From: Nanobdellota archaeon
GTDB taxonomy: Archaea > Nanobdellota > Nanobdellia > Woesearchaeales > UBA9642
Reading direction: 5' to 3'
Assembly: GCA_021813435.1 (NCBI GenBank)
Contig: JAKAKR010000004.1
Coordinates: forward strand, 120,972 to 184,971
Length of the DNA: 64,000 nt
In this document: piece by piece, positions 1 through 48,637 of the stretch
Layout of the letters: each line of letters begins with the position of its first letter
Position numbering within the stretch: the stretch's first letter is position 1
Made by a program: the position numbers and the translations under genes
Notes under the pieces: model-generated
Databases searched by the model: none
What the model was told of the DNA's origin: nothing
What the model saw: only the letters and a program-made list of their open reading frames with translations

Positions 1-194
1 TCGTCAAGCGGGGTGTGCGTAATCTCCGTAAAAAGCGTGTTACAGGCCACAAGACTATCGGCGGCGTCAGCAGCATTATAGTCAAACCCTTTTCTTGTGG
101 TATGCATTGTTTATAAACCTCTTATCTATATTACATGTATTCTATCGCCAAAACGGTCTTATTACCGCAGTGCTTTCTTCATCATGGTGATACC

Positions 195-389
195 ATGAAT
201 AAAAAAATCGTACTGACCATTTTGATTTTGGCATTGCTTGTCTTTGCCATCGGAACAACCATCGAAGTTCTTGCGGGAAGAAACGCCGAAAAAGGTACAT
301 TCAGCGTTCTGCCGTCAGTGAGCGCAGATTATCCTCCAAACGATCCCTGTAATCTTAATAACCCAAATAGGCCACTGGATTGTCAGTAA
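195..389 (+). CDS. small secreted or membrane-anchored hypothetical protein
   Basis: ORF track 135..389; likely true start at internal Met (MNKKIVLTILILALLVFAIG hydrophobic N-terminus, signal/anchor-like); no recognisable family. Confidence 0.4.
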   Translation: MNKKIVLTILILALLVFAIGTTIEVLAGRNAEKGTFSVLPSVSADYPPNDPCNLNNPNRPLDCQ

Positions 390-412
390 ACGGCAATGAT
401 ATCTGTGCTGTT

Positions 413-2923
413 TTAGTCATTTTTTGTATTTTTTTTATATTTCTCAAGCATTTTCAATGCGAAATAATTGCTGCAATACCAACTGGTATTTGAAACATCG
501 TTTATAAAAATATACGCATGAGGCATTAACCCAGGATAATTGCCGTCAGTGTTGAGCCGTTGTATCGCGGATATAACAACTGAGTCATAAATCTTGTTCG
601 GAATATTAATACCTTGCGACTTCGCTTCATTAAGATTGTCAAGCAGTACCAATAGCGCAAGATTATTTTCGCGGATAGAAGATCCATCGTTATGCGTGGT
701 TACGAATGCTGATTTTTCTGGATTATCTGCGTTTTTTCGTATTCCAATTTCTTCAGGAATCTGTTGCGTATAGGTAAACACGTTAAGCGAGAAATCAATC
801 ATTCTTTTTGCAACGGTCTTTAACCGTGTATCAGTCTTTGCATACATGAGTACGGCAGAAGTCATCAACGTATGCGTAAACATATTAGTAGAATATAATG
901 AGAGCGTATCTTGAAGGCCGCGATTAAATTTTGGCGAGGAATTTGCGTTGTAGTATGCGGTGTGTTCAAATGAGCTATCACTATACACCCAATCTCTTGT
1001 TCCACCATCGGCAAAAAGTGCATTTTTCTCAAAGAATTTAAAGTGGTTTTGCATGCGGATCGTATCAAACTGTGGCTGTAAGAGGAGTGATTCAACAACA
1101 AAACTCGAATAGGGTTGGAAGATATGTCCTACAAATGATTTTGTTGCGCCGGTAATTCTATTTGTAGTATTTGAAAAACAATAAAATCCCTGCAACGATG
1201 TACCGGTGTATTCGTTTGCAAGCGCAGCGACTAACTTCGGAATGATCTGCACCAACCGCGTGTACTGTATCGTATTGATGTGAGAGGATAAATTGCTCTT
1301 CTCAATAACCTGATGCGCATAGATTATTCTAAATGGATTTGCGCGGGTAGTATCAGAAGACGAAGTGTTAAGCAAAAGGATATCTGCATCGATTCGCGAT
1401 AGGAGAGAAGAATCGCCTGTTAATTTTAACAGTTGAGTGTGATATGCGATTGCATATGCATCCATCGCGTAAGTATTTCCCGTTGTTGATAAGCTGAAAC
1501 TATTTTTTCCTCCCGTGGTGACACTCTGGATGAATGCGTTCTGCGGATATGCAGTCACAAAATGCACTTTCTCGCGGGCAAGGCGATAAAGGAGCGTTGA
1601 TACGTCTTTTGCATCAATGGTTTTTTGCTGTTCATACTTTGTGATGATCGCGTTTTTGGTGTAGGCTGCACTATTGAGATAGGTGACCTGGTTATATGCA
1701 AGTAGTCCTGCGGCAAAAAGTCCGATGACTGCGGCAGCATATTTTGAACTGTTCACCAGGCGCTGAAATTTTTCATCTGCAAAATACGCGCGTTCTAACT
1801 GTTTGAATCGCGGTCTTGCTTTAGGGTCAGGCGCAATGGTTTTTGCCAGCGTTGCAGACAGGAATGGATAACGCCAGTGCTTCGGGAAAATTCCTGCAGG
1901 ATGATTTTTAAAAAATAAGTCCTGCGCAATCATGATCGCCCACACATCATCGAAGTATACGCGAAGATCGCGGTATGTTGGAAGATAGGGGTGGCCATGC
2001 TGCGCGGCCGCAACCGTCACCCCAAAGGAGAACACATCGCTTGCGCTCTGCGGTTTTTGCCAGTGGTCAGGTTTATCCTGAAATGCCGAAACCCGCGCGT
2101 GGATGTCATCGATCATATGCATCAACATGCCTTTCGGGAGCGCAAGTCGCTCTTCAAGGGTTTTTTGTTGCGGCAACCCAATAATCGGCTTTTCCGGCGA
2201 GTACATTGCCGCATATAATTGCAATTCTTCAGGCGCCATATACGCAAGCGTCCCAAAAAGTCGATGCGTTATATCTCTTGGAGGAGCGGTTGCAGTATAG
2301 CTTGCTCCGCGATCAAGTACGAACGGATACTGCAGAGAGTATTCTTCAGCCCGCCGGAGGACAAGGAGGATATTTGCAGGTTTGATGTCGTTGATGATGC
2401 ATCCTGCGTGCGCATATGCCTGTTGATAGCGATGCGCCATCTCACCTGAAAATCTGAGCAGTTCTTCAGCAGCGAACTGTTTTTTCTTGAGAAGCGCGTC
2501 CAGTGTTTGTATCCTGCCGCGAAAATCTTCCTGCGTATCGACTGCACGATTGGGGATTGCAGGTATCTCCATGCTGAAGAATGATGCGAGCGTATTTTCG
2601 ATATACAATCGATCGATGATTGCAGGAAAGATGCGCATGTTGTCCCGCGTCATGATCGGGTCAAGCTCTTTTGAACGCTCGATTTCCCAGCGTATACTGT
2701 CCCGGGTATCTGCAGTGTGAATAATAGTTGAAGTCATGACCGTATCATCAAGACGCGTTCCATAATCTTCAAGATCATGATCTAATGCTGAGCCTTTGAG
2801 AATTTCCAGACGATCAACAGGATTATTCTTGACAAGAGAAACGACTGCGCCCAACTGTTCCATGAATGTGTATTGCGGAGAAATTCCCCTCATATATTCG
2901 CCACCAGAAGCGTACTTAGACAA
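413..2923 (-). CDS. membrane-spanning eukaryotic-like Ser/Thr protein kinase with large C-terminal extracytoplasmic domain
   Basis: Hanks motifs seen in translation: DIKPANILL (catalytic loop), GTLAYMAPE (activation segment), DVFSFGV (subdomain IX); one predicted TM helix (AAAVIGLFAAGLLAY) followed by ~420-aa domain of unknown fold. Confidence 0.65.
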   Translation of the reverse strand: MSKYASGGEYMRGISPQYTFMEQLGAVVSLVKNNPVDRLEILKGSALDHDLEDYGTRLDDTVMTSTIIHTADTRDSIRWEIERSKELDPIMTRDNMRIFPAIIDRLYIENTLASFFSMEIPAIPNRAVDTQEDFRGRIQTLDALLKKKQFAAEELLRFSGEMAHRYQQAYAHAGCIINDIKPANILLVLRRAEEYSLQYPFVLDRGASYTATAPPRDITHRLFGTLAYMAPEELQLYAAMYSPEKPIIGLPQQKTLEERLALPKGMLMHMIDDIHARVSAFQDKPDHWQKPQSASDVFSFGVTVAAAQHGHPYLPTYRDLRVYFDDVWAIMIAQDLFFKNHPAGIFPKHWRYPFLSATLAKTIAPDPKARPRFKQLERAYFADEKFQRLVNSSKYAAAVIGLFAAGLLAYNQVTYLNSAAYTKNAIITKYEQQKTIDAKDVSTLLYRLAREKVHFVTAYPQNAFIQSVTTGGKNSFSLSTTGNTYAMDAYAIAYHTQLLKLTGDSSLLSRIDADILLLNTSSSDTTRANPFRIIYAHQVIEKSNLSSHINTIQYTRLVQIIPKLVAALANEYTGTSLQGFYCFSNTTNRITGATKSFVGHIFQPYSSFVVESLLLQPQFDTIRMQNHFKFFEKNALFADGGTRDWVYSDSSFEHTAYYNANSSPKFNRGLQDTLSLYSTNMFTHTLMTSAVLMYAKTDTRLKTVAKRMIDFSLNVFTYTQQIPEEIGIRKNADNPEKSAFVTTHNDGSSIRENNLALLVLLDNLNEAKSQGINIPNKIYDSVVISAIQRLNTDGNYPGLMPHAYIFINDVSNTSWYCSNYFALKMLEKYKKNTKND

Positions 2924-3795
2924 TCCATCAATTTTTTCGTGATGGCAAAATATTCGCGTGTAAGGATTGGATTATCCAAATCAATGGTTTTCCAGTCCGG
3001 ACCGGAATCGATGATTTCCTGCACTTTTGCAATCTCGAATTTCTTGAACAGATTGAAAAACATGATGAGCAGATCACTGATGCTGCGGAATGCCGCGACC
3101 TTTCGCTTGTCAATCGCAAGTTTTTGCGCTGACACGGTTTTGAATACCCGCTTGTACGAGTCTCCAATATTTTCGAGTGAATCCACAAAAACATAGAGTG
3201 AGGTGCTGGTGCCGTCTTTGGGGTTGATGTTGATGATCCGGCGGCAAATGTCGGCAAGATCATTGATGCGTTTGTCGCGCTGCACGAGTCCTGCAATCTT
3301 TTCCCATTCCTTTTTCTGCCAGAGTTGCACAAAATCATCGTTGAGACAGTAGATCTCTTTCATGAGCGCAATGATCTGCTCACTCAATTTCGATTCAGAA
3401 ACAGTTCCTGGAACAACGAGTGTTATTTTTGCAGGGAATTCCTGCCTTTCAAAAAAGATATGTTCAGTCTTTTCATAGAGATCGAGCTTTTTTTCAGAGA
3501 TGATGCGCTGGATTTCATCATATTGGGTCTGATTCTCACACTCGAGGATAATCAGTTCATATCCTTTCTTATAGCATCCGCCGATGATCTTATCAATCAT
3601 TGCAGGATTGATTCCGCGCAGGTTGAGATAGCATTCCTGTAATTTGATCTGACTATTTGCTTTGATGATGAGCGAATCGCCGTATTCGACTACAGAAATC
3701 TTGTCTCCTTTTCTGAGACCGTATTTTGTGATCCAATTCTTCGGGAGCGTCACACACCAACTTGCATTTCCAAACATGACAATACTCCGCTCCAT
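2890..3795 (-). CDS. AbrB/SpoVT-type swapped-hairpin domain fused to PhoU-like domain (archaeal phosphate-uptake-regulator-like)
   Basis: ORF 2890..3915; probable start at MERSIVMFGNASWCVTLPKNWITKYGLRKGDKISV (AbrB-like N-terminal barrel); helical C-terminal region typical of PhoU-like archaeal regulators. Confidence 0.5.
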   Translation of the reverse strand: MERSIVMFGNASWCVTLPKNWITKYGLRKGDKISVVEYGDSLIIKANSQIKLQECYLNLRGINPAMIDKIIGGCYKKGYELIILECENQTQYDEIQRIISEKKLDLYEKTEHIFFERQEFPAKITLVVPGTVSESKLSEQIIALMKEIYCLNDDFVQLWQKKEWEKIAGLVQRDKRINDLADICRRIININPKDGTSTSLYVFVDSLENIGDSYKRVFKTVSAQKLAIDKRKVAAFRSISDLLIMFFNLFKKFEIAKVQEIIDSGPDWKTIDLDNPILTREYFAITKKLMDCLSTLLVANI

Positions 3796-4043
3796 AGTAC
3801 CCCTCTCGCGTAGGTATTTATATAGTTTTCTACAAGTGTTTTCCCTGCGAGAATCTTTGCGTATACCATTGGAATACATATCCTTTTGTAAATCGGTTGG
3901 TCTGAAGAAATGCATCCATACTGATTGATGCTGGCATTAAGCAGTCTGGTTCCAATCCCCTAAGGCGCTTTTAGACGATTAACTTTTTAAATCATACCCT
4001 GTTCTGCGCATTGTTGCTTGGGGTTTACTGTCGATAATACTAT

Positions 4044-4115
4044 GCGGGTATAGCCAAGCGGTAAGGCAGCCGCCTGCAGAGCGGCCATTCCAGGGTTCAA
4101 ATCCCTGTACCCGCT
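4044..4115 (+). tRNA. tRNA-Cys: tRNA-Cys (anticodon GCA), CCA not encoded
   Basis: Cloverleaf read directly: acceptor GCGGGTA/TACCCGC, D arm GCC-AAGCGGTAA-GGC, anticodon stem GCCGC/GCGGC with loop CTGCAGA (GCA at 4076-4078), variable CATTC, T arm CAGGG-TTCAAAT-CCCTG, discriminator T. Confidence 0.9.
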
Positions 4116-4116
4116 T

Positions 4117-4350
4117 ATGACTCTTATTATTCCGGGGAGATACCGGCATTTCAAGGGCAAAGAATATGAAGTTCTCGGTGTAGGACGTCATTCTGAAACA
4201 CTCGAGGAATTTGTCATCTACCGTGCGTTATATGAATCTGCGGAATTCGGAAAGCATGCATTATGGGTCCGCCCGCTCAAGATGTTTACGCAGCACGTTG
4301 AGAAAGAAGGATACTCAGGACCAAGATTTTTCCTAATCAGCAAAGATTGA
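4117..4350 (+). CDS. DUF1653-family small protein
   Basis: YRHFKGKEYEVLGV...VIYRALY...LWVRPLKMF matches DUF1653 consensus; starts 2 nt after tRNA-Cys. Confidence 0.75.
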   Translation: MTLIIPGRYRHFKGKEYEVLGVGRHSETLEEFVIYRALYESAEFGKHALWVRPLKMFTQHVEKEGYSGPRFFLISKD

Positions 4351-5108
4351 CTCTCATTGACGATGCGATACTATTCGAGTGAGGATTTCCAGCCCATGCC
4401 GTCAATAAATCCGATTGTTTTCATCGATCAGTTCTGGAACTGCCGTTATAACAATGTCTTGGAATTATAGTTGCGGACATAACTACGCTATGATTTAGCG
4501 TCTTCTCGCTCTCATCGAAGTGTAAGCGGAGTATTGTCATCTCCGAAGGAGCCAACCCTCTGACAATGTTCTAAAATTGTCGGATATTCGCTCGCCTTAG
4601 GACGCTAAATGATAAGAAACTTTTGTCTACAACTATTACTTGCCTGTATCCTTTGCGTATTGATCTGTAAATTTTGTTGAAGAAAATTTTTCCCTGTATA
4701 CCACCAATAGTTGAATCTGCTTGATGGCGCATCGATCATGACTCTTTTGGCTTCAAAAAGTGCAGCAGATGTGCCTTTTTCAGTTTTAATTTGTATTAAG
4801 TAATCCCCTTGGTTATCGTAAGAACTTTTTTGAACGCCGGTGTATACTGCAAGTATAGTGACTGTTGCGAGTTTTCCCCAATGTTTTTTAAGAAGTGTAG
4901 AGAGACTCAGTTATATCCACTTAGAAGTGGTATTCTATTTATACATTTTATTTCAATTATTGTTTTAATCGTAGTTTCTTCTTACAATCGATAGCTTTAA
5001 ATATAACTTAATCTGATAATCAGAATTTTATTCAGTAATGAATAAGTTGATTCAAATTATCAAATAAAGAAATCTTATATCAGCAGTTTTTACTGATTTT
5101 CAGATAAA

Positions 5109-5399
5109 ATGAAGAAATTTGCTCGGCTTGTACAATGCGACTCGCGTGGGCAGATTGTTATACCAAAAGAGGTCAGACAGGAGCTAGGTATTGAAGAGGG
5201 GGCGGGGTTTTACCTTTATGTTATTGAAAATGAAGGGATACTTCTCAAGACAATACCATCTAAAGAGTTCTCAGAGCACACTCATATGATCAAGGAGATA
5301 GAAGTCAATGCAGAGAAAATATCTGTCTCGAAAAAGAATCTTGACGCAAGTGTCCAGAATTACAAGAAAAAAGAGCGAGGTAACCTCCAAAGAATCTAG
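5109..5399 (+). CDS. AbrB/MazE/SpoVT-family DNA-binding protein
   Basis: N-terminus VQCDSRGQIVIPKEVRQELGIEEG = swapped-hairpin motif (SRGxIxIPKEIR). Confidence 0.65.
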   Translation: MKKFARLVQCDSRGQIVIPKEVRQELGIEEGAGFYLYVIENEGILLKTIPSKEFSEHTHMIKEIEVNAEKISVSKKNLDASVQNYKKKERGNLQRI

Positions 5400-5504
5400 A
5401 CTTCACGATCAGTGTGGTGGCGTGTACCGGATGGGAACTTATTCTTTTTAAAACCCCCAACAACTTAAAAAGAACCATTCGGTAACCCCCACTGATATTT
5501 TTTT

Positions 5505-6113
5505 CTATTCTGCAATATCTGCAAGTTCTTCGATAAGTTCAAGATGTTTTATCCGAAGTGTCGGTTCACCGCAATAACTCCTGTTTCCTACTCTGAATAA
5601 TTGGGGTTGCGCATGGAATAGCAATTGCAGCGGTGTTTGGGGTCCATTGATATACTGGCTGTCTATGAATGCTTCGTGATCCGCATGCCTGTCATATGTC
5701 CCGGTGATAATGATTCCAGGAATGCTGTCGCGCAGGTGGTCATAGATGTTGAATCGTGTGTGATCGATATGTTTTCCATGGATATGGGTGATGTCCTCTA
5801 TAGTCACATGGTCGATAATCCCTAAAGTTCTGCTGTTGTTAAACATGCCTCGCACACTTTGCTGTCGGGTATGCGCGAGATACTCTCCAAAATCCTCCAT
5901 TGTACCGCCGGTGTATATCGTTGCGCGTAGGGCATCAAGTCCTGTCATGAACCGGGGTAGTCGGTGAGGTATACTGATTTTATCGTATACTTCTTTTATC
6001 TCTGCAATATTTTGAAACAGCAGCACGTGGTCATAAGGATAATATCGCTGTGCCATAACCATAAGAATATCGCCGGGACGTTGTGCATAATACTCTGCAG
6101 TGATGTTTTCCAT
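5505..6113 (-). CDS. hypothetical protein, possibly metallophosphoesterase-like
   Basis: His/Asp-rich stretches (ITHIHGKHIDH, GTYDRHADHE) reminiscent of calcineurin-like phosphoesterase motifs but motif order not canonical. Confidence 0.3.
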   Translation of the reverse strand: MENITAEYYAQRPGDILMVMAQRYYPYDHVLLFQNIAEIKEVYDKISIPHRLPRFMTGLDALRATIYTGGTMEDFGEYLAHTRQQSVRGMFNNSRTLGIIDHVTIEDITHIHGKHIDHTRFNIYDHLRDSIPGIIITGTYDRHADHEAFIDSQYINGPQTPLQLLFHAQPQLFRVGNRSYCGEPTLRIKHLELIEELADIAE

Positions 6114-6248
6114 GGCGTCTGATTTCTTGCAGTCTTTAAAAATATTTTTATTACTGTAATCCTGAAGTGATTACACTTCAATGTTCTGCTATTGCTGTCC
6201 GATTCTCAAAACCAATACACATATATACGAATCATTATTTCTTTGATC

Positions 6249-7028
6249 ATGATCCAGCGCGTCCTTATTGGAAAGGCAAAGACAGTGCAGCTTGATGACA
6301 AGCGCAAGCCAACAGTTCTTGCAGGCGAAGTGACGTATTTTGTTGAGGATATTTCGAAAGATTATCATTGCAGCGATGGCGTCTTTAGAAAAGAGGACCT
6401 CTTGCAAACCAGCGGGGTCATCACGACTAATAAGGGCAGGGACTTTCAGATCTTTGCTGCAGGTTTTATTGATTCGTATAAAGGCATCAAGAAATATGCG
6501 CAGACAATCCCGTTGAAAGATTTAGGATTCATCCTTGCAGAAACCGGGATCAACAGCGATTCAATCGTCGTCGATGCAGGTGCCGGCAGTGGCGCGAGCG
6601 CGATCTTTTTTGCGCGATACGCTAAGCATGTCTACACGTACGATATTAATGATAATAGCCTGGAGCAGACCAAAACAAACATTGCATATTATGCTATCAA
6701 AAACATCACGCTTGAAAAAGCCGATATTTATGATCATATTCCCGTCAAAGATGTGGATATGATGCTCATTGATGTCCCAGAACCCCGGAGAGCGATTGAG
6801 TCCATCAATAATTCACTCAAAGTCGGAGGATTTCTTGTAATCTATTGCCCACAGATCACACAGGCGCATGAATTTGTCAACGCCTTAGCGCAGAGAGGAA
6901 ATTATCTCCACCTTAAGACAGTGGAGATGGTCGAGCGAGGCTGGAAGATTGAAGGCAATATTGTCAGGCCAAAATCACTCTCGAATATTCATTCTGCATT
7001 CTTGACTATTGTACGGAAGATTAATTAA
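6249..7028 (+). CDS. trmI: tRNA (adenine-N1)-methyltransferase TrmI/Gcd14 family
   Basis: SAM-binding motif IVVDAGAGSGASAIFFA, overall TrmI-like layout; start moved to Met of MIQRVLIGKAK. Confidence 0.75.
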   Translation: MIQRVLIGKAKTVQLDDKRKPTVLAGEVTYFVEDISKDYHCSDGVFRKEDLLQTSGVITTNKGRDFQIFAAGFIDSYKGIKKYAQTIPLKDLGFILAETGINSDSIVVDAGAGSGASAIFFARYAKHVYTYDINDNSLEQTKTNIAYYAIKNITLEKADIYDHIPVKDVDMMLIDVPEPRRAIESINNSLKVGGFLVIYCPQITQAHEFVNALAQRGNYLHLKTVEMVERGWKIEGNIVRPKSLSNIHSAFLTIVRKIN

Positions 7029-7053
7029 ACAATAACTCAAAAAATAATTTTTC

Positions 7054-7539
7054 TTATTTAGTATTAACTGAGTCGATTATATTCGAGATGTCGCTAGTCA
7101 CACGAGTGATCTGTATTTCTAATGAGCGAAGTATTGGGTTATATTTTTCTTTTAATGGCGAAAGATACTGTGCAACACCATCAGGATCGTATTGACTTAT
7201 TCCTGTCCCTGTAGCGCCGTTAGATATCCATTCTCTTCGCCAATTTCTTTCTTTGAGTAAGTATTCTTCGCGCACTTTTTTATATTCTTGTTCTAGACTA
7301 TCTTTTTGATTGTTTAGTCGCATGTAATGTGGGATATGCTGCAACTGTTTTTGATTGTGTTGTTCTTCTAGCAGGAGCTGTGTATTGTATTTATTTTTCC
7401 ATTGAGTCAATTCTGTTTCTAGTTTTGCATTGTTGTAATATTGTAGTCCAATCGTCAATGCCTCTGCTGCCATGATTCCGCCAATGATTATTGCTTTTCC
7501 GTATGTCTTGATTTTATCAGTTATGTTTTGTGCATTCAT
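7054..7539 (-). CDS. hypothetical N-terminally anchored coiled-coil protein
   Basis: N-terminal hydrophobic helix (AIIIGGIMAAEALTIGL) then Q/E/K-rich coiled-coil-like sequence. Confidence 0.4.
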   Translation of the reverse strand: MNAQNITDKIKTYGKAIIIGGIMAAEALTIGLQYYNNAKLETELTQWKNKYNTQLLLEEQHNQKQLQHIPHYMRLNNQKDSLEQEYKKVREEYLLKERNWRREWISNGATGTGISQYDPDGVAQYLSPLKEKYNPILRSLEIQITRVTSDISNIIDSVNTK

Positions 7540-7596
7540 TTGAACACCTCTTTTTTATTTCTACTCTGTAGTGGCATATTAAATATATAAATATTA

Positions 7597-7639
7597 TTTC
7601 CCTAACGGGGGGAATGGCATATTTCCCTTTAGGGGGTTA
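7597..7639 (+). promoter_or_regulatory. two adjacent operator-like sites TTTCCCT-N3-GGGG upstream of TrmB paralog 1, followed by TATA-like TTTTTATACT (7651-7660)
   Basis: TTTCCCTAACGGGGGGAA (7597-7614) and TTTCCCTTTAGGGGGTT (7623-7639), each an imperfect palindrome CCCT-N-AGGG. Confidence 0.5.
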
Positions 7640-7680
7640 AAATAGAAATATTTTTATACTCGTCGGTATGTTGAGTGTTT

Positions 7681-8436
7681 ATGGACATCGAACCACTCCG
7701 CGAATTAGGGCTTACTGAGGGCGAAATCAAGGTCTATACTGCACTCGTCTCTCTGGGAGAAACAACGACTGGGCCAATCGCCGCTGAATCAGAGGTTACT
7801 GTCTCAAAAGTGTACGATATCCTTAATCGCCTTGCAAAAAAAGGACTGGTATCACACATCATCAAGAACCAGACAAAATATTTCAAGGCCTCTGACCCGC
7901 AGCGCTTACTGGTCTATCTTAAAGAGAAGCAGGATGCACTGCAAGAACAGGAATCAAAGCTTAAGACAATCATTCCTGAACTTGAAATCCAGCAGCAGCT
8001 TCGAATCTCTGAAGAGACTGCCCAGGTCTATGACGGACTCAAAGGGGTGCAGACTGCACGTGAGCGAAGCCTGCGTATACTCAAAAGCGGGGATGAGATG
8101 TGGATTATTGGGATTGCAAAGACCCCGTATGACCGGCTGACTGCATATTTCAAGGAATTTCATACGCGCAGATCAAAACAGGGCATCACATGCAATTATC
8201 TTTACAATGAATATGCGCGCAAACCATTCGGGGAGTCATCTGCGCAATTCCCGCACAGCGAGGTAAGATACATGCCTGAAGGCATCATCACCCATGCGTG
8301 GATGGAGATCTATGGAGATACTGTAACTATCGGAATCAACAAGGGAAAATCATTCTCAGTTGTCATTCAAAACCAAGATGTTGCAAATTCATTTAAAATT
8401 TATGCACAATTATTATGGGGAATGGCAAAGAAATAA
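7681..8436 (+). CDS. TrmB-family transcriptional regulator (paralog 1)
   Basis: N-terminal wHTH LGLTEGEIKVYTALVSLGETTTGPIAAESEVTVSKVYDILNRLAKKGLV typical of TrmB; ORF track start 7675 is GTG, ATG at 7681. Confidence 0.8.
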   Translation: MDIEPLRELGLTEGEIKVYTALVSLGETTTGPIAAESEVTVSKVYDILNRLAKKGLVSHIIKNQTKYFKASDPQRLLVYLKEKQDALQEQESKLKTIIPELEIQQQLRISEETAQVYDGLKGVQTARERSLRILKSGDEMWIIGIAKTPYDRLTAYFKEFHTRRSKQGITCNYLYNEYARKPFGESSAQFPHSEVRYMPEGIITHAWMEIYGDTVTIGINKGKSFSVVIQNQDVANSFKIYAQLLWGMAKK

Positions 8437-8441
8437 CCATA

Positions 8442-9011
8442 TCAATTGTGACTGTTCGCTATTTTTCTACAGTTTTCTCCAAGAAATATTTTTAATAACG
8501 GATTATCTGCGATTTGTTTTGGATTTGCTTTATTGTCGAATTCTATTGTTTTTGCTTTGATACTCTGTGCAATTTTATAGTCAAGAAAATTGTTTTCTTT
8601 TTTTAATTTGTTTACTAAATCCATAACTAATATTTTCTCAGTTATGCCATCATGATATTTTTCTAATTTGGAAATTATTTCACTGATCTTGTAGATAAAA
8701 CCAAGGATGACTTGTTTATATTCTTCAGAGTCGTTTATTGCTAAAGTGATCCAGAAGGTTCCTATCTCTTCAGTATGAAATTTGAATTGCATGTGCGGTT
8801 TAGAATGTTTTTCCTGTTTGCTGTGATGCTCTATTGCATAATTTCTATGAATTATTTTTTCTTCGTAATGTCTCGTCTCAATTCTCAATGAGTAATCTTC
8901 TTCAGTAACATCTAAGCTCGGTGTTTCTTTGACGCTAATACGTATATTATTATCTGAATCTTCAAAAAGCGTTGTATTAAAGTAAATTTTTGTGAAATGG
9001 AATGGTTTCAT
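8442..9011 (-). CDS. hypothetical protein (AT-rich island, partner of 9008..9664)
   Basis: 189-aa ORF, 4-nt overlap with upstream ORF (operon-like); no recognisable domain; very AT-rich coding sequence. Confidence 0.45.
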   Translation of the reverse strand: MKPFHFTKIYFNTTLFEDSDNNIRISVKETPSLDVTEEDYSLRIETRHYEEKIIHRNYAIEHHSKQEKHSKPHMQFKFHTEEIGTFWITLAINDSEEYKQVILGFIYKISEIISKLEKYHDGITEKILVMDLVNKLKKENNFLDYKIAQSIKAKTIEFDNKANPKQIADNPLLKIFLGENCRKIANSHN

Positions 9012-9664
9012 TTATGTAGTCCAATTAAATTACATGTTGATTCACTCATGTTTTTTTGCTGATCCATGGTTGGTTTTTCTTCTTCACTTAAGGCAAGAAC
9101 ATCTTCGATATCGTTACTAAATGAATCCATACTCAGATAATAGGTGGAGTATAATTTCTTCCAGTAAACAATATTGAAAAGATTGTTGTTTACCCATGAC
9201 TCAGTAATACCAAATTCCTTTTTTAACACTTGAAGAATGCATCTAAAATATATCTCGAGATATTTTTCGCTTATGTGTTTATGTTCGTGATCAACACCAA
9301 AAAATATTGAAGGGTTGTATCCTCTTTTTCCATAAAATATTTTTTTAATGCGAAGATCTATTGTAAATTTTTCCTTTTCACTTTTAATATCATTATATTC
9401 AAACTCTATGCCTAGATATCGACCGCTTGTTTGTATATTAATATTTTCTTCTAACTCTATGAATGCAGTTTTCCTCCGATATCTTATTAATCCGAAATTT
9501 TCAGTGGATGCGTTTTGTGTTCTTTGATTAAGCAACTTTTGTAAAACATCATCAAATGATTCGTTCCCTTTTTTAATATCGTTTAATTGTGTCCACGTTC
9601 GTGCATCGACTTTTATTGTTTTATTATGCTTTGGTAATTCGCTAGTTCCGCTTATTAATGCCAT
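9008..9664 (-). CDS. fusion protein with N-terminal archaeal VapB-like (COG1753/PF02697-type) antitoxin domain and unknown C-terminal domain
   Basis: N-terminus IKVDARTWTQLNDIKKGNESFDDVLQKLL matches the small archaeal putative-antitoxin family pattern (I-x-V-seetw..L..lK...eSFsdvi..LL); ~170 extra residues of unknown function. Confidence 0.5.
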   Translation of the reverse strand: MALISGTSELPKHNKTIKVDARTWTQLNDIKKGNESFDDVLQKLLNQRTQNASTENFGLIRYRRKTAFIELEENINIQTSGRYLGIEFEYNDIKSEKEKFTIDLRIKKIFYGKRGYNPSIFFGVDHEHKHISEKYLEIYFRCILQVLKKEFGITESWVNNNLFNIVYWKKLYSTYYLSMDSFSNDIEDVLALSEEEKPTMDQQKNMSESTCNLIGLHK

Positions 9665-9787
9665 TGTTCACCTGATATATTAAGTATACTTAGTAGAAAT
9701 GGTTTACTGATATATAAATATTGCGTTTTTATAATTTATTTTCTTCTGCTATGTTAGATGCAAAACATCACCGCAAGATTTATATAT

Positions 9788-9930
9788 CCCGCACCCTTTC
9801 CCATAGATAGGTATGGGGGACTAATCAAACCCTATACGTTCAGCCCGACACTGAGAGTACCTTCGGGAGCCTACGGCAAAGCCAAGCGTTGAACGCGGGG
9901 GTTAGTGGTGCGGGCGACAAACCTTTATAC
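9788..9930 (+). ncRNA. candidate structured small RNA (family unknown)
   Basis: GC-rich island in an AT-rich intergenic region. Long-range helix CCCGCACC (9788-9795) with GGTGCGGG (9908-9915); internal hairpins CCCATA-GATAGG-TATGGG, CC-UUCG-GG, GGC-AAA-GCC. TATA-like ATTTATATAT at 9778-9787. No long ORF. Strand and ends uncertain. Confidence 0.35.
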
Positions 9931-10154: not shown

Positions 10155-11546
10155 GTGATAGCAATGGGAAAGATAAATCCAGTAAGCTCAAAATATATTG
10201 TCCACACCTCAATCCAGATTGATGGTGTTGTTGATAAGCCCGATGTCATCGGTGCAATATTCGGCCAGACTGAAGGCCTATTAGGCGCAGATCTTGAACT
10301 GCGTGAATTGCAGCGTTCAGGAAAAATCGGCCGTATCGAAGTCAATCTTGACACCCGTGGCGGTAAGACCAAGGGAGAGATTGTACTTCCCAGTTCGCTT
10401 GACAAGGCAGAGACTGCAATTGTCGGCGCAGCGCTCGAGATTATCCAGCGTATCGGTCCATGTAATTCTAAGGTCCGTGTGGAAAGTATTGAAGATGTCC
10501 GTATCAGCAAGCGTCAATTCGTCATTGAGCGTGCAAAAGAGCTTCTCAAGTCACTCACTGATAGCGTCCTTCCGAACTCGCAAGAGATCGCTGAGGAAGT
10601 CGCAGCATCAGTACGTGTCATGGAAATCACTGAATATGGCAGGGATCGCCTTCCTGCAGGACCTGAAGTTGCTGATTCTCCAGAGATTATTGTTGTTGAG
10701 GGACGCGCTGATGTCGTGAACCTCTTGAAGAACGGATTCAAGAACGCAATTGCAGTCAATGGGACAAGTATCCCTGCAACGATTGTTGAACTCTGCAAGC
10801 AGAAGACCGTTACTGTCTTTGTTGATGGAGACCGTGGGGGAAGCCTTATTATCCAGGAACTCCTCTCAGTCACTGACATTGACTTTGTGACTCGTGCTCC
10901 TGACGGCAAGGAACTTGAAGAACTCACCAAGAAAGAGATCCACAAATGTCTACGCGCACGCATCGCAGCTGAACAGGTAAAGCTCGAAATCGGAATCAAG
11001 GACGGCGCCCCTGCAGGAACTGTTGATCCGACTATTCAGCAAGCAGTTGCAGAAAATGATAAGTTGACGGGTGAATCATTCTCAGTCATGAAAAAGACAA
11101 TGTCACGGCCAACTATTCCTGTTCAAGGACAGGGACAATCACCGCGACCGCAGTATCAAAACCAAGGGCAGCATGGACAGCCGCGACCAATGCAGAATTC
11201 GCAGCAGCGACCACAACAGCAACCGCAACAGCAGCCACAGACGCCGCGAAAACCTACACCGCAGGAAATAGAGCATTTCGGCGACATGATGGAAGATCTC
11301 ATCGGTACCCGCGCTGCATTCATGCTTGATGAAAAGTTGAGCATTTTAGGAAAGATCCCGGTCTCTGAACTCATCACGACCATCAAGAGCCTGAACGGCG
11401 GGATCTATGCAGTCGTGCTTGATGATATCATCGATCCGGATCTCGTCACTGCTGCAGAACGTGCAGGAGTAAAATTCCTGGTCGCAATGGATACCAAAGT
11501 CAAGGGATCAAATAAGTTGACACTCTTGACGACCGAAGACCTGTAA
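10155..11546 (+). CDS. dnaG: archaeal DnaG-type primase / exosome-associated TOPRIM protein
   Basis: Archaeal DnaG N-terminal region (IQIDGVVDKPDVIGAIFGQTEGLLG), TOPRIM with EGRADV and VDGDRGG motifs; Q/P-rich low-complexity insert near residues 318-365. Confidence 0.9.
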   Translation: MIAMGKINPVSSKYIVHTSIQIDGVVDKPDVIGAIFGQTEGLLGADLELRELQRSGKIGRIEVNLDTRGGKTKGEIVLPSSLDKAETAIVGAALEIIQRIGPCNSKVRVESIEDVRISKRQFVIERAKELLKSLTDSVLPNSQEIAEEVAASVRVMEITEYGRDRLPAGPEVADSPEIIVVEGRADVVNLLKNGFKNAIAVNGTSIPATIVELCKQKTVTVFVDGDRGGSLIIQELLSVTDIDFVTRAPDGKELEELTKKEIHKCLRARIAAEQVKLEIGIKDGAPAGTVDPTIQQAVAENDKLTGESFSVMKKTMSRPTIPVQGQGQSPRPQYQNQGQHGQPRPMQNSQQRPQQQPQQQPQTPRKPTPQEIEHFGDMMEDLIGTRAAFMLDEKLSILGKIPVSELITTIKSLNGGIYAVVLDDIIDPDLVTAAERAGVKFLVAMDTKVKGSNKLTLLTTEDL

Positions 11547-45055: not shown

Positions 45056-46165
45056 TCATGATTTGATGGATTCAATATTTTTCTTTGAATGGTCTCTTAA
45101 ATATTTATTATATTCTTTTGTTGATAAATTATTAGAGAGAATGTCTGTGTATGGCGTTAAGATTCTCTGCCGTAGTTTGTAGCTGTTAGCGTGTTTTATG
45201 TGTGCTATCCATCCTTCGATGGTGTCGTAGACTTTATCGTATTCAATTTGTTTGTTTTGATATTTCGTAATGAGCAGTGATAATTTCTTTCTGAATTTTC
45301 TGCTGTTTCTTTTTGCAAGGAGTTTGTGATGTGGGTAGATTCTTATTCCTAAGAATCCTACGCCACGTTTTAGGAATGATATTTTTGTTTTTTCTGGATG
45401 AAGCTCTAGGTGCAGGTTTTCTTTAAGGAATTGATTAATTTGTGTTTTATAATCTTCGAGTTTTTCAAGGTGTTCGTCCATGATTACAAAATCATCAACA
45501 TATCTGATGTAATAGTTTACGCGGAGTTTGTGTTTGATAAACCAATCTAATTCATCAAGGTAAATATTTGCAAAAAATTGGCTTGTGAAATTTCCGAGCG
45601 GCATCCCTTTCCTTCTGTTTCTTGTTTGGTGGTTGCTTAGGATTATTCTTATGAGGTTGATGAGTTTTTTATCCTTAATCTTTCTTTGAAGTAAGGTTAT
45701 AAGAATATTGTGGTCTACATTGTCAAAGTAGTGTTTGATATCCGCTTTAAGTATATAACAATTTCTTGTGTTGTTTTGTGATGCTTTCTGTTTGAATTCT
45801 TCGAATCGTTTTATTGCTTTGAGTGTTCCTTTTCCTTTGCGGTTTGCGTAAGAATCGTGGATGAATGTTTTATCGAATAGTGGTTCGATAATATTGCAGA
45901 TTGCGTGGTGTACGATTCTGTCTCTAAAATCCGATTTACTGATTTTTCTGGTCTTTGGATCTCTAAGAATGAATGTTTCTAGAGGTCTTGGCTCGTATAG
46001 TTCGAGTTCTAACTCTTTTTGCAACTGAACAAGATTCTCTTTAAGATTGTTTTCAAATTCTATGACGTACGGTTTTAGTGTCTTATGTTTACGCGCCTTT
46101 TTATACGCAAGGTAGAGGTTATCTTTTGAACAGATTAACGGGTAGAGTTGTTTGTATCTCTTCAT
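45056..46165 (-). CDS. diversity-generating retroelement (DGR) reverse transcriptase
   Basis: RT motifs ILKADIKHYFDNVDH, GMPLGNFTSQFFANIYL (DGR-typical [I/L]GxxxSQ instead of QGxxxSP), YVDDFVI; N-terminal LYLAYKKARKHK...FRDRIVHHAI typical of DGR RTs; template repeat 22 nt upstream of its start. Confidence 0.9.
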   Translation of the reverse strand: MKRYKQLYPLICSKDNLYLAYKKARKHKTLKPYVIEFENNLKENLVQLQKELELELYEPRPLETFILRDPKTRKISKSDFRDRIVHHAICNIIEPLFDKTFIHDSYANRKGKGTLKAIKRFEEFKQKASQNNTRNCYILKADIKHYFDNVDHNILITLLQRKIKDKKLINLIRIILSNHQTRNRRKGMPLGNFTSQFFANIYLDELDWFIKHKLRVNYYIRYVDDFVIMDEHLEKLEDYKTQINQFLKENLHLELHPEKTKISFLKRGVGFLGIRIYPHHKLLAKRNSRKFRKKLSLLITKYQNKQIEYDKVYDTIEGWIAHIKHANSYKLRQRILTPYTDILSNNLSTKEYNKYLRDHSKKNIESIKS

Positions 46166-46187
46166 GAATATGATGCCTTGACAGGGG

Positions 46188-46279
46188 GTTATTCCAACGA
46201 AGCGGGCATTGTTATTGAGATTGTTGTTGCCATTAAGATTGCCGTTGTTGTTGCTGTTGTTGACAAAGAGGACCCGCCC
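46188..46279 (-). repeat. DGR template repeat (TR)
   Basis: 92-nt near-identical copy of 46758..46849; on coding (minus) strand rich in AAC/AAT codons (GRVLFVNNSNNNGNLNGNNNLNNNARFVGI in target frame). Confidence 0.9.
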
Positions 46280-46526
46280 CGATCTTTAGCCCTTTTGCTG
46301 TAACTCTTCACCATTGCTTCAAGATTTCGAAACTGATTCTACTCATTGTCGCAATTGTATGCTCAAAAATCGTAGATTTTTGGCACGCCAGAAATCCGCG
46401 ATTTCTCAGCGTTTTATGACGCTTAATAAGACGCCTTAGCAAAAGAGCGTGTAGCCCCGTACCCGCGCTTAATTCAGGTAAGTCAAGGCGGTGAGAAAAA
46501 TAAAAAGAATATTAAAAAGATTTCTA

Positions 46527-46568
46527 TTTTAGAAACAGTGGTTGCGTGTGCTTCGGCTGTTTCTAAAA
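46527..46568 (-). terminator. stem-loop (12-bp stem) followed by T-tract on minus strand, probable terminator of DGR target gene
   Basis: TTTTAGAAACAG ... CTGTTTCTAAAA inverted repeat with 18-nt loop ~45 nt downstream of target stop; T-rich tail on minus strand. Confidence 0.45.
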
Positions 46569-46612
46569 TTCAGAAGACAAAACACATATTATCTGAATAA
46601 TGTTGTCTTCTT

Positions 46613-47500
46613 TTATTTACGCGTTAGCATATTGTAAACCGTTGGTGATACTAGGTCCTGTCGGATAACCACAATTCCGTTACCTGCATCAATGCCTTTA
46701 CCGACTAGTGTTTCCAGTGGAGACTTGATTTTTTGCGCGCTGGCTACGCCAGACGACGGTACCCCAACGAAGCGGGCATTGTAATTGAGAAGGTTGTAGC
46801 CATTAAGATTGCCGTTGTCGTTGCTGTTGTCGACAAAGAGGACCCGCCCATAAGGTACGTCATGTAAATCAGTTGAGTGATATACTCCGATGTTTTTTCC
46901 TACAACTTTCTCGTGCTGTTCCAAATATTTTTCTGCGCGTTTTTCTCCACCAATAAATGGAATGACTTGTGGATGTTTCATTGCATCAGAGATGCTTATT
47001 GTTCCACTTGTAGAATTTTTCAATGAATCGTAATCAATGACAAAAACATTAACACCGTCTTCTTTATTTAGTAATTGCTGAAATAATTTTTTTGGATAAT
47101 ATCCTGCGCCGTTGATGAGCGGATTTTTCTTGTCAACTATTGCTTTCTGAATATTTTTTGGATCAGAAAAATAATTATCTATGTGCGCATAGACTACAAC
47201 TTTGCTTCCGCCTTTAGTTGTTCCAGTTACTCGAACACTTGGAGCGCTATACCCTTTATTCCAGATAAATGAATTCTTATCAGAAACACTGCGCATATCC
47301 ATTATCTTAGGAATAAATGCAGCACGATAACCTTCGTTTTGGCATTCAGCGAGTGCTACAGGCAAAGGATTTTGAAGACCATATTTTTCTACGTCTTCTT
47401 TTGATACTGAATCTCTATAAAAGATTTTACCCATTACAGTCATTGGAATTTGAATATCTTCAGTCATTTTGATCCTCCGTACGAGTTGTGCGTAAAACAA
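46613..47500 (-). CDS. DGR variable (target) protein, family unknown
   Basis: Contains VR (residues ~213-244 of 295: GRVLFVDNSNDNGNLNGYNLLNYNARFVGV); no signal peptide evident; 48-aa tail after VR. Confidence 0.8.
   Translation of the reverse strand: MFYAQLVRRIKMTEDIQIPMTVMGKIFYRDSVSKEDVEKYGLQNPLPVALAECQNEGYRAAFIPKIMDMRSVSDKNSFIWNKGYSAPSVRVTGTTKGGSKVVVYAHIDNYFSDPKNIQKAIVDKKNPLINGAGYYPKKLFQQLLNKEDGVNVFVIDYDSLKNSTSGTISISDAMKHPQVIPFIGGEKRAEKYLEQHEKVVGKNIGVYHSTDLHDVPYGRVLFVDNSNDNGNLNGYNLLNYNARFVGVPSSGVASAQKIKSPLETLVGKGIDAGNGIVVIRQDLVSPTVYNMLTRK
46758..46849 (-). repeat. DGR variable repeat (VR) inside target gene
   Basis: Differs from TR at 9 positions (TR 46189, 46192, 46193, 46213, 46221, 46222, 46228, 46249, 46261), every one a T in TR on the + strand = A on coding strand, replaced by G/C/A/T. 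Confidence 0.9.
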
Positions 47501-47620
47501 TCGTATTTACTAAGGTATATTTAGTCTTATTTAAATAGTTTACGATTTTATTGTTACTTGAAAGTGATAAATTAATCAATTTTCACAATATTTAAATAGT
47601 ATAACTGAGATATACTAATT

Positions 47621-48172
47621 ATGGCAAGCCCAAGCAAAGAGAATCAGGTATTAACACTCATCCTCGAGAGCAGCCCACTAAAGAAATGGCATTTTGAAGA
47701 GATCATGAAAGAGGCAAAAGTCACTCGGCTTGTTGCAAACAAGTGGCTCAAGAAATATCTTGCAGAAAAACTTATCATCCGCGTAAAAGAAAAAGGACGA
47801 TTCCCATATTACACTGTAGAGTCGAACAATCCAGTATATTACTCAGCAAAAAGAATATATATGCTCGAGCGATTGCACAGCAGCGGATTATTATCTCGAT
47901 TATTATCATTGACTGGCATAAAAACCATTATCTTGTTTGGAAGCGCAGTAAGAGGTGATTGGTATGCGGGTTCAGATATCGACATCTTCATGCTCGGAAA
48001 TCTTCCGGATTTTGATAAAAAAATTTATGAACAACAACTGCATACCCAGATAGAGTTGCATGTGTTCAAGGACAAAAGAGAGATACATGCAGTAAAAACA
48101 GGACTCATTGCAAACATCATCAACGGTTATGTCCTCAAGGGACAGATCCAAGACATCGTCGAGGTTGCATGA
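47621..48172 (+). CDS. minimal nucleotidyltransferase (MNT) with N-terminal wHTH-like region
   Basis: ILFGSAVRGDWYAGSDIDIF = GSxxRG...SDxDh nucleotidyltransferase motif. Confidence 0.75.
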   Translation: MASPSKENQVLTLILESSPLKKWHFEEIMKEAKVTRLVANKWLKKYLAEKLIIRVKEKGRFPYYTVESNNPVYYSAKRIYMLERLHSSGLLSRLLSLTGIKTIILFGSAVRGDWYAGSDIDIFMLGNLPDFDKKIYEQQLHTQIELHVFKDKREIHAVKTGLIANIINGYVLKGQIQDIVEVA

Positions 48173-48637
48173 ATGAAATTAATAATTGACAATCTTGACA
48201 GCACCTATAAATCATGCATGTCTAACGGCATGATCAAAGAGAAAACTATTGATATCGAACTCATCCGTTCACTTAAGCTTGTCGCAGAACAAGGAATACG
48301 ATTCATCAACAGCAAGTCAAAAGACATTCCAAAACACAGTACTGACTGGACATTTGTATTCAGGGATTATTATGAGGCATTACGCGGGCTTATCGAAGCA
48401 TATATACTTTTTGATGGGATCGTTGCAGACAATCACCAATGCAAGAACGCATATGTCTGCTTCAGGCATCCAGAACTTGAACTCGATTGGGCATTTCTTG
48501 AAACAATCAGATTAAAACGTAATGCGATAAATTATCGTGGGCAATTATTAAAATATGATGATTGGAAATTATTAAAATTAAAATTTGGATTGCATATCAA
48601 TGCGCTGAAAAATGAGATTGAGAAAAAATTAGGGTAG
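48173..48637 (+). CDS. HEPN-domain protein (partner of MNT; putative toxin)
   Basis: Start overlaps MNT stop (TGAATG); helical protein with RLKRNAINYRG resembling HEPN Rx4-6H motif (Y in place of H). Confidence 0.55.
   Translation: MKLIIDNLDSTYKSCMSNGMIKEKTIDIELIRSLKLVAEQGIRFINSKSKDIPKHSTDWTFVFRDYYEALRGLIEAYILFDGIVADNHQCKNAYVCFRHPELELDWAFLETIRLKRNAINYRGQLLKYDDWKLLKLKFGLHINALKNEIEKKLG

Follow-up and report, generated by a model that had tools for sequence, protein, structure and literature searches.

A two-gene cassette of DPANN archaea resembles a toxin–antitoxin module and carries a candidate new effector

What kind of element is the pair of overlapping, AT-rich genes that lies upstream of dnaG in a 64,000-nucleotide stretch of archaeal DNA (the window)? 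A preliminary description of this locus proposed that the first gene, open reading frame 1 (ORF1), encodes a VapB-like antitoxin head fused to an unrecognizable domain, that the second, ORF2, encodes an equally unrecognizable 189-residue partner and overlaps the first by 4 nt, and that the two have the architecture seen in many undescribed toxin–antitoxin or defence modules. The overlap was confirmed, as the stop codon of ORF1 and the start codon of ORF2 share the nucleotides ATGA at 9008–9011, and the opposite strand of the island (8442–9664) contains no competing long ORF. We place the host among the DPANN archaea because the best matches to its DnaG protein, at 75–83% identity, are annotated as Candidatus Woesearchaeota; judged by sequence, it is a Woesearchaeote, and not a Methanosarcinales methanogen that had acquired DPANN DNA. 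The reading that we favour, and consider moderately probable, is that the two genes form a type II toxin–antitoxin-like module that is self-contained and autoregulated, moves horizontally and has a new effector. This module has so far been seen mainly in DPANN archaea (Woesearchaeota and Nanoarchaeota), and is most likely an undescribed toxin–antitoxin-like module of that group.

Multiple observations establish the pair as an obligate, self-contained and tightly coupled unit. First, ORF1 was located directly upstream of ORF2 at all 14 loci found in a one-genome-per-species collection, in 4 further contigs, and at each of the 25 metagenome loci for which upstream DNA was available. This order applied at every checkable locus, about 43 in the close family and 3 distant; the same pair is thus present in other genomes, where the preliminary description had advised looking for it. 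Second, the gap between the genes ranged from –4 to +6 nt at the 18 loci measured with correctly placed start codons. Third, each of three distant ORF2 relatives (P0083, P0107 and P0112; profile E-values from 1e-19 to 4.5e-7) was preceded by an overlapping or abutting ORF1-like gene; these upstream partners matched the ORF1 profile with hhalign E-values of 1e-5, 2e-4 and 3e-4, and the two partners that are complete retain a DUF7557/VAPB-like head. Fourth, the identity matrices of ORF1 and ORF2 co-varied, with a Mantel r of 0.75 that was reached by none of 5000 permutations. Finally, an all-against-all ORF comparison of the flanks of 21 loci found no widely shared third gene, the runner-up being present in 3. 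A census of 143 neighbour proteins yielded 134 Pfam families, the commonest of which were MNT-type nucleotidyltransferases (4), tyrosine integrases (3), HhH-GPD proteins (3) and IF-2B proteins (3). The cassette is sparsely distributed, occurring in 14 of 185,579 species representatives.

The N-terminal part of ORF1 is related to a known family of archaeal antitoxins. Profile PF02697 (VAPB_antitox) matched residues 15–58 with an E-value of 4.6e-6 and a score of 27.7 bits over profile positions 1–47 of 69, and the antitoxin-like peptide quoted in the preliminary description (IKVDARTWTQLNDIKKGNESFDDVLQKLL, residues 17–45) falls within this match, so the proposed similarity survived a profile search. 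When 15 aligned members of the ORF1 family were scanned singly, all 15 matched PF02697 (E ≤ 0.01; best 6.4e-7) and 11 matched DUF7557; among the 16 ORF1 homologues, which are 40–51% identical, precomputed Pfam hits to PF02697 were present for 8. By these sequence comparisons, the head of ORF1 belongs to PF02697/COG1753, if perhaps only at its border. This family, also named DUF217, comprises archaea-specific ribbon-helix-helix (RHH) antitoxins that accompany PIN or RelE toxins (Makarova et al., 2009, PMC2701414). The remaining ~160 residues of ORF1 matched no known sequence family or solved fold, in accord with the earlier impression that they were unrecognizable. Across the ORF1 superfamily, only R64 and D185 were invariant and no polar cluster comparable to that of ORF2 was present; because of this sparse conservation, the C-terminal portion resembles a binding domain rather than a catalytic one, and we regard it as a putative ORF2-binding or neutralizing domain.

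The DNA upstream of ORF1 looks like a conserved promoter with a candidate operator. At about 16 of 18 loci, a B recognition element (BRE)/TATA sequence is followed by two to four tandem AGTAYACY boxes (palindrome AGTATACT) spaced ~9 bp apart, then by a GGTG ribosome-binding site and the start codon; the aligned promoters have the consensus TATA-AGTATACC-nTATACT-AGTATACT. In the ORF1 upstream regions of the 18 loci, AGTAYAC occurred 40 times compared to 0.7 expected from the remainder of the same loci, a 56-fold enrichment. The boxes remain conserved although the cassette proteins are only 40–50% identical and the flanks are unrelated. Archaeal repressors usually act over the expected transcription start, which is where these boxes lie. 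In the window, the palindrome and degenerate box listed in Table 1 occupy corresponding positions downstream of the TATA element, and the GGTG within the Shine-Dalgarno-like sequence is found at the same position in many other cassette loci. Elsewhere in the window, AGTAYAC had 19 matches outside the ORF1 promoter region, a number estimated to be close to chance, and there is thus no sign of a wider regulon. Two tandem cassettes on one contig (L043) have unlike boxes, one of the ATATATC type and the other of the AGTATAC type, as would be expected if each regulator recognizes its own operator. The promoter palindromes of two distant cassettes also differ (CATATTATG/CATAATATG in L028 and TGTATGCA/TTGTATACAA in L030), a pattern consistent with divergence of the operator alongside the RHH head.

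Composition and context both point to recent acquisition of the pair, as had been proposed from its AT-richness. The GC content of the island is 0.299 compared to a window mean of 0.432, making it the lowest-GC 1.2-kb stretch in the 64 kb (z = –3.2; 0.3% of sliding windows were equally low). GC at synonymous third positions (GC3) is 0.25 and 0.27 in the pair but 0.42–0.49 in the genes for TrmB, DnaG, the GCD14-type tRNA methyltransferase and a histidine kinase; because the bias is present at synonymous sites, the low GC content is not merely an effect of amino-acid composition. Profile matches verified the flanking genes named in the preliminary description, with the tRNA methyltransferase and TrmB genes on one side and dnaG on the other. 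In four genomes with 76–83% identical DnaG proteins, the content of the GCD14-to-dnaG interval is different in each, and the anchors are shared: an AbrB/MazE-like 97-residue gene and the GCD14 methyltransferase gene at the left, and an RNA-like element followed by dnaG at the right. Between these anchors, one relative (L025) has a 137-residue gene, TrmB, a ParE/RHH_12 pair and an RHH_8/PIN pair; a second (L027) has an RHH_1/PIN pair and a 90-residue gene; a third (L026) has two tiny ORFs; and the fourth (L031) has an unrelated 305-residue gene. The window contains ORF1 and ORF2 in exactly the slot that is filled otherwise in these relatives. Because slot content varies and synonymous-site composition is anomalous, the pair is probably a variable, horizontally acquired insert, and the slot between GCD14 and dnaG repeatedly captures classical toxin–antitoxin modules. 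An inverted repeat that spans the TrmB and ORF2 stop codons marks the left edge of the insert and may serve as a bidirectional terminator.

Other loci provide additional signs of mobility. The neighbours and location of the cassette differed in every locus compared, and the pair was more AT-rich than its flanks at 17 of 18 loci. Tyrosine integrase genes adjoin two distant cassettes (L028, 641–5331; L030, 5165–7882), and the former locus also encodes a reverse transcriptase that contains an HTH_40 domain. Type IV secretion-like genes adjoin another cassette: in a 631-kb Nanoarchaeia contig (L019, region 134–8606), the cassette immediately follows genes for a TrbC-like pilin, a VirB4/TraC-like ATPase and TFIIB, which suggests residence on an integrated conjugative-type element. 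tRNA genes lie 50–700 nt from three cassettes. In L043 (5907–8823), the tandem cassettes are paralogous. Between them lies a tRNA-Arg(GCG) gene truncated to its 5′ half, preceded by its upstream region, whereas the tRNA-Arg gene that follows the second cassette is intact. This arrangement resembles what a ~1.4-kb cassette would leave behind after integrating site-specifically at a tRNA gene.

Of the two proteins, ORF2 is the better conserved, with a mean column identity of 64% compared to 49% for ORF1. In an alignment of 22 ORF2 sequences with identities as low as 18%, the only invariant residues after the initiator methionine were H63, H69, H73, Q75 and F105; G104 and L173 were nearly invariant, and E61 was conserved in most sequences. 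Eight histidines, including the three invariant ones, fall between residues 48 and 79. In an AlphaFold2 model of ORF2, the conserved residues are placed at the end of strand 4, in the following loop and at the start of strand 5, and the modelled hairpin register would bring the pairs H63–H73 and E61–Q75 to one face of the sheet, a pattern typical of a catalytic or metal site. We consider the cluster to be a candidate site of this type and ORF2 probably to be the enzymatic partner, because the histidines are invariant and ORF2 is the better conserved protein. The family is small, with 65 clusters at E ≤ 1e-3 in an HMMER profile search of 1.84 billion cluster representatives, and no Pfam domain was present in the ten distant members scanned. 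ORF2 gave no reliable match in Pfam, NCBIfam, PADLOC or PHROGs; profile and sequence searches of the PDB were empty; and a BFVD search returned nothing at E ≤ 0.001. Toxin superfamilies that were considered and did not fit ORF2 were PIN, RelE/ParE, MazF/CcdB, HEPN, Doc/Fic, GNAT, MNT, Zeta, HipA, RES and ART. The unrecognizable character ascribed to ORF2 in the preliminary description thus held at the levels of family and fold. Two marginal hits were rejected: CDC24_OB1 on ORF2 itself (E = 3.7e-4; 20.9 bits versus a 25-bit cut-off), which is weak and falls within a helical region, and an AKAP7 2′5′-RNA-ligase-like match on one distant member (E = 0.029), which was missing from the other nine scanned. 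Kinship between ORF2 and the C-terminal domain of ORF1 was undetectable (hhalign probability 0.3%). At one locus (L053, 1070–1802), a ~150-nt insert of nested inverted repeats, resembling a miniature inverted-repeat transposable element, splits ORF2 after about residue 98, and the upstream ORF1 is intact. The insert could have inactivated the effector gene or could be an intervening sequence of an unusual kind; as a single case, the split is compatible with decay of a toxin.

These results can be assembled into a working model. The cassette has generic features of type II modules, with adjacent, co-directional and coupled genes that co-diverge, a predicted RHH head together with conserved boxes in its own promoter to which ORF1 would bind, and a patchy distribution in variable contexts that includes absence from the syntenic slot of four close relatives. 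In the model, ORF1 would dimerize via its VapB/COG1753-type RHH head and bind the tandem AGTAYACY boxes, blocking initiation of transcription of its own operon from a position between the TATA box and the start codon. ORF1 and ORF2 would be made from one transcript, with translation coupled through the ATGA overlap. The C-terminal domain of ORF1, which has no conserved catalytic residues, may hold ORF2 in an inactive complex, a role that we infer because the two proteins co-occur strictly, appear translationally coupled and have diverged together. ORF2 would be an enzyme with an active or metal site formed by E61, H63, H69, H73 and Q75 on an exposed β-hairpin. Once freed from ORF1, it would act on a cellular target and thereby stabilize the cassette or stop growth under stress or infection; our guess is that its substrate is a nucleic acid or nucleotide. 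The cassette itself would have entered the genome at a hypervariable slot that is bounded by the GCD14/TrmB genes on one side and, ahead of dnaG, by a small-RNA gene on the other. A bolder and more tentative proposal, which we regard as possible but less likely than not, is that ORF2 founds a new enzyme family that has a fold with no solved relative and a site of three histidines (plus Glu/Gln) on an exposed β-hairpin, that it serves a DPANN-specific module as a toxic or defensive effector, and that a ~1.4-kb cassette with its own promoter and operator is the minimal unit that spreads, inserting next to tRNA or small-RNA genes by means of integrases provided in trans.

How does the cassette compare to established systems? 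Its logic is familiar, in that an RHH regulator is paired with a partner in a mobile, autoregulated unit, but the C-terminal domain of ORF1 and the effector have no known relatives. The closest parallel is with archaeal VapB(COG1753/PF02697)–VapC(PIN) pairs, which likewise have an N-terminal RHH head of the same profile family, place the antitoxin gene first with an overlapping second gene, and are archaea-specific, patchy and variable in location; indeed, RHH/PIN pairs fill the same slot in sister genomes. By contrast, a typical VapB is a stand-alone protein of ~70–90 residues with a short flexible tail, whereas ORF1 is about three times longer at 218 residues and carries an extra folded domain of ~160 residues, and ORF2, unlike VapC, is neither PIN nor RelE and matches no toxin family or solved fold. 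ParD–ParE modules share the insert size class of two genes, an RHH antitoxin and the same slot, with the L025 ParE/RHH_12 pair starting immediately after the TrmB stop codon, just as ORF2 does in the window, but differ in gene order relative to the flanks and in toxin fold, and the components of our cassette are larger. MetJ binds tandem 8-bp met boxes, and the MetJ/Arc/CopG repressors in general resemble ORF1 in having tandem, partly palindromic boxes of ~8–9 bp (AGTATACT in the cassette) over a core promoter; those proteins, however, are stand-alone regulators of metabolic or plasmid genes, whereas here the promoter is of the archaeal TATA/BRE type and ORF1 is the presumed ligand. RHH heads on globular domains have been catalogued in the paREP1 RHH–HEPN fusions (Makarova et al., 2009, PMC2701414). 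Like ORF1, these fusions combine an RHH head and a larger domain in one polypeptide and belong to mobile two-gene stress-response modules, but in our cassette a separate partner gene, ORF2, is always present. PF02697 and DUF7557 had no hits in full-text searches of the literature, and the papers retrieved by a combined search on DPANN archaea, toxin–antitoxin systems and Woesearchaeota did not address this module, as judged by title and abstract.

Several findings weigh against a toxin–antitoxin-like module. The charges are not those of a classical acidic antitoxin and basic toxin, as most ORF1-family proteins have isoelectric points near 9 and ORF2-family proteins near 6–7; typical components of type II modules are only about half as large as either protein; the PF02697 score of ORF1 is 0.2 bits below the Pfam gathering threshold of 27.9; and ORF2 is unlike any known toxin in sequence or fold in the searches described above. 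The cassette was not found in IMG/VR viral contigs or, by tblastn, in PLSDB plasmids and INPHARED phages, and most of its neighbours are housekeeping genes. The hot-spot argument is also one of guilt by location, and in one sister genome the slot is filled by an unrelated gene. The presence of many housekeeping neighbours and the dissimilarity of ORF2 to toxins would also suit a non-toxic accessory module of mobile elements, in which ORF1 is a sequence-specific repressor that senses a signal or binds ORF2 through its C-terminal domain, and ORF2 is a histidine-rich metal-binding protein or metalloenzyme that benefits the host or the element, for example, in metal handling or in small-molecule or nucleic-acid modification. 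RHH regulators with C-terminal effector domains do exist, NikR with its RHH head and sensing domain being a loose parallel, and the histidine-rich segment of ORF2 is as well suited to metal binding as to catalysis. Nevertheless, we think such a role unlikely. ORF1 does not have the NikR combination of a C-terminal ACT-like tetramerization domain and conserved His/Cys metal ligands; neither the flanks of the 21 loci nor the 143 neighbours revealed a transporter or metal-related gene that accompanies the pair; and the patchy spread, the AT skew and a slot shared with VapBC and ParDE in sisters are typical of selfish modules, leaving hot-spot behaviour unexplained by an accessory function.

A toxin–antitoxin-like module could also have been selected for defence, and many toxin–antitoxin-like pairs prove to be defence systems. 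In an anti-virus or anti-plasmid abortive-infection system, whose mechanism overlaps that of toxin–antitoxin modules, ORF1 would silence ORF2 as long as no infection is sensed; once one is, ORF2 would damage nucleic acids of the host or of the invader. Some cassettes do adjoin genes for reverse transcriptase, integrase, MNT-type nucleotidyltransferase or type II restriction-modification enzymes, and elsewhere in the window are an MNT-type gene and a reverse transcriptase gene accompanied by an RT-16 RNA. Neither ORF1 nor ORF2, however, matched any PADLOC model (PADLOC-DB 2.0), the neighbours in the window are the tRNA methyltransferase, TrmB and dnaG genes, and only a small fraction of the 143 neighbours belong to defence systems or mobile elements, with few matches to PADLOC models of restriction-modification or of candidate defence systems. 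A consistent location in defence islands, raised in the preliminary description, was not found in this census (3 integrases, 4 MNT-type genes and 2 type II restriction-modification pairs among the 134 Pfam families), and we rate selection for defence as somewhat more doubtful than an accessory role. Far less credible is a lineage-specific housekeeping pair that is inherited vertically in DPANN archaea and owes its low GC content to amino-acid composition only. The 40–60% identity of the proteins across many DPANN metagenome-assembled genomes and their frequent location among core genes would fit vertical inheritance, but the pair is missing from the syntenic position in the four closest relatives, is rare in both the species collection and the cluster database, occupies a different location in every genome, has anomalous composition at synonymous sites, and occurs as tandem duplicate cassettes on one contig. 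The architecture initially proposed is upheld with respect to the VapB-type head, the obligate partner and mobility, and the operator-like array and the slot shared with classical pairs add to it; a consistent defence-island link was not found.

Table 1. Positions of the cassette features and of flanking elements in the window.
Feature	Positions	Strand	Remarks
ORF1, putative antitoxin/autoregulator	9008–9664	minus	218 aa, ATG start; predicted RHH head plus domain with no known fold; ORF call, 16 homologues
Predicted VapB/COG1753-type RHH head, ORF1 residues 15–58	9491–9622	minus	β strand TIKVD, helix, G-N-E-S turn, helix
α/β domain with no known fold, ORF1 residues 60–218	9011–9487	minus	conserved C-terminal motif W..Y...LS..SF..DIE
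ORF2, putative effector/toxin	8442–9011	minus	189 aa; six-stranded antiparallel sheet packed on helices
Histidine cluster E61-x-H63 ... H69 ... H73-x-Q75, ORF2 residues 61–75	8787–8831	minus	β4-loop-β5 hairpin
BRE/TATA promoter of the ORF1–ORF2 operon, CGCAATATTTATATATC	9709–9725	minus	aligns with the TATA region of 15 other cassettes
Degenerate operator-like box, CAGTAAACC	9701–9709	minus	between TATA box and start codon
Perfect 12-nt palindrome, TAAGTATACTTA	9681–9692	minus	unique in the window versus 0.05 expected
Shine-Dalgarno-like AGGTGA	9668–9673	minus	4 nt upstream of the ORF1 ATG; read from the sequence
Inverted repeat	8405–8450		14-nt arms, 86% complementary; spans the stops of TrmB (8436) and ORF2 (8442)
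GCD14-type tRNA methyltransferase	6192–7028	plus	flank
TrmB-family regulator	7675–8436	plus	flank; stop 5 nt from the ORF2 stop (convergent)
Conserved non-coding RNA-like element	~9772–9926	plus	between ORF1 and dnaG; BRE/TATA promoter CGCAAGATTTATATATC at 9772–9788
Archaeal DnaG	10155–11546	plus	flank on the other side

Because DPANN archaea are host-dependent and their genomes are tiny, the selfish or defensive modules that they retain are informative, and almost nothing in this group has been experimentally characterized. The cassette offers two proteins that lend themselves to testing, each of which has a confident structure model and lacks known relatives in fold, as well as a candidate new catalytic site (H63, H69, H73 and Q75) and a well-defined candidate operator for an archaeal RHH regulator. 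If ORF2 is toxic, then it would represent a new toxin family, probably with a biochemical activity new to the toxin–antitoxin repertoire, and the pair could be used in the genetics of AT-rich archaea as a tool for addiction or counter-selection. New toxin–antitoxin-like families are found often; this one is well defined and limited to a poorly studied group. In addition, the hypervariable slot ahead of dnaG, with five contents in five related genomes, lets cassette turnover be studied as a natural experiment.

Two elements close to the cassette were missed by the preliminary description. One is the RNA-like element that forms the right-hand anchor of the variable slot. About 25 nt past its promoter lies a GC-rich stretch of ~130 nt, in which a long hairpin (GCCCGACAC...GUGGUGCGGGC) is accompanied by an 8+8-nt internal loop, a 3′ ACA and a T-run. 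The four related genomes carry the element in nearly identical form, with two compensatory pairs. An Rfam search of the region between ORF1 and dnaG gave no match; the layout of the element resembles that of an archaeal H/ACA guide RNA, a likeness drawn by analogy. Its promoter and that of ORF1 are divergent, 46 nt apart, and form a 17-nt inverted repeat that is 94% complementary, which may reflect only a strong local BRE/TATA consensus or the copying of one promoter when the cassette arrived. The other is an AT-rich ORF of 161 residues (7054–7539, minus strand; GC 0.36) that lies between the GCD14 and TrmB genes and has no family match. Its place is occupied by the 137-residue gene in L025 and is empty in L026, L027 and L031, and the ORF thus belongs to the variable region.

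Other genes of the window have related themes. Upstream of the GCD14 methyltransferase gene is one for a 96-residue SpoVT/AbrB protein (MazE_antitoxin in Pfam; 5109–5399, plus strand) that has no adjacent toxin gene and is kept in all four relatives; a role as a conserved AbrB-type regulator is more likely than one as an antitoxin. At 46281–46488, an RT-16 RNA (55.8 bits versus the Rfam gathering score of 50 bits) lies directly upstream of a 369-residue reverse transcriptase gene (45056–46165, minus strand). A 295-residue gene with no Pfam match (46613–47500, minus strand) lies further upstream and is adjoined by genes for an MNT-type nucleotidyltransferase (47621–48172) and an uncharacterized 154-residue protein, which together span 47621–48637 on the plus strand. 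The region from 45056 to 48637 may be another mobile or defence region of the same Woesearchaeote.

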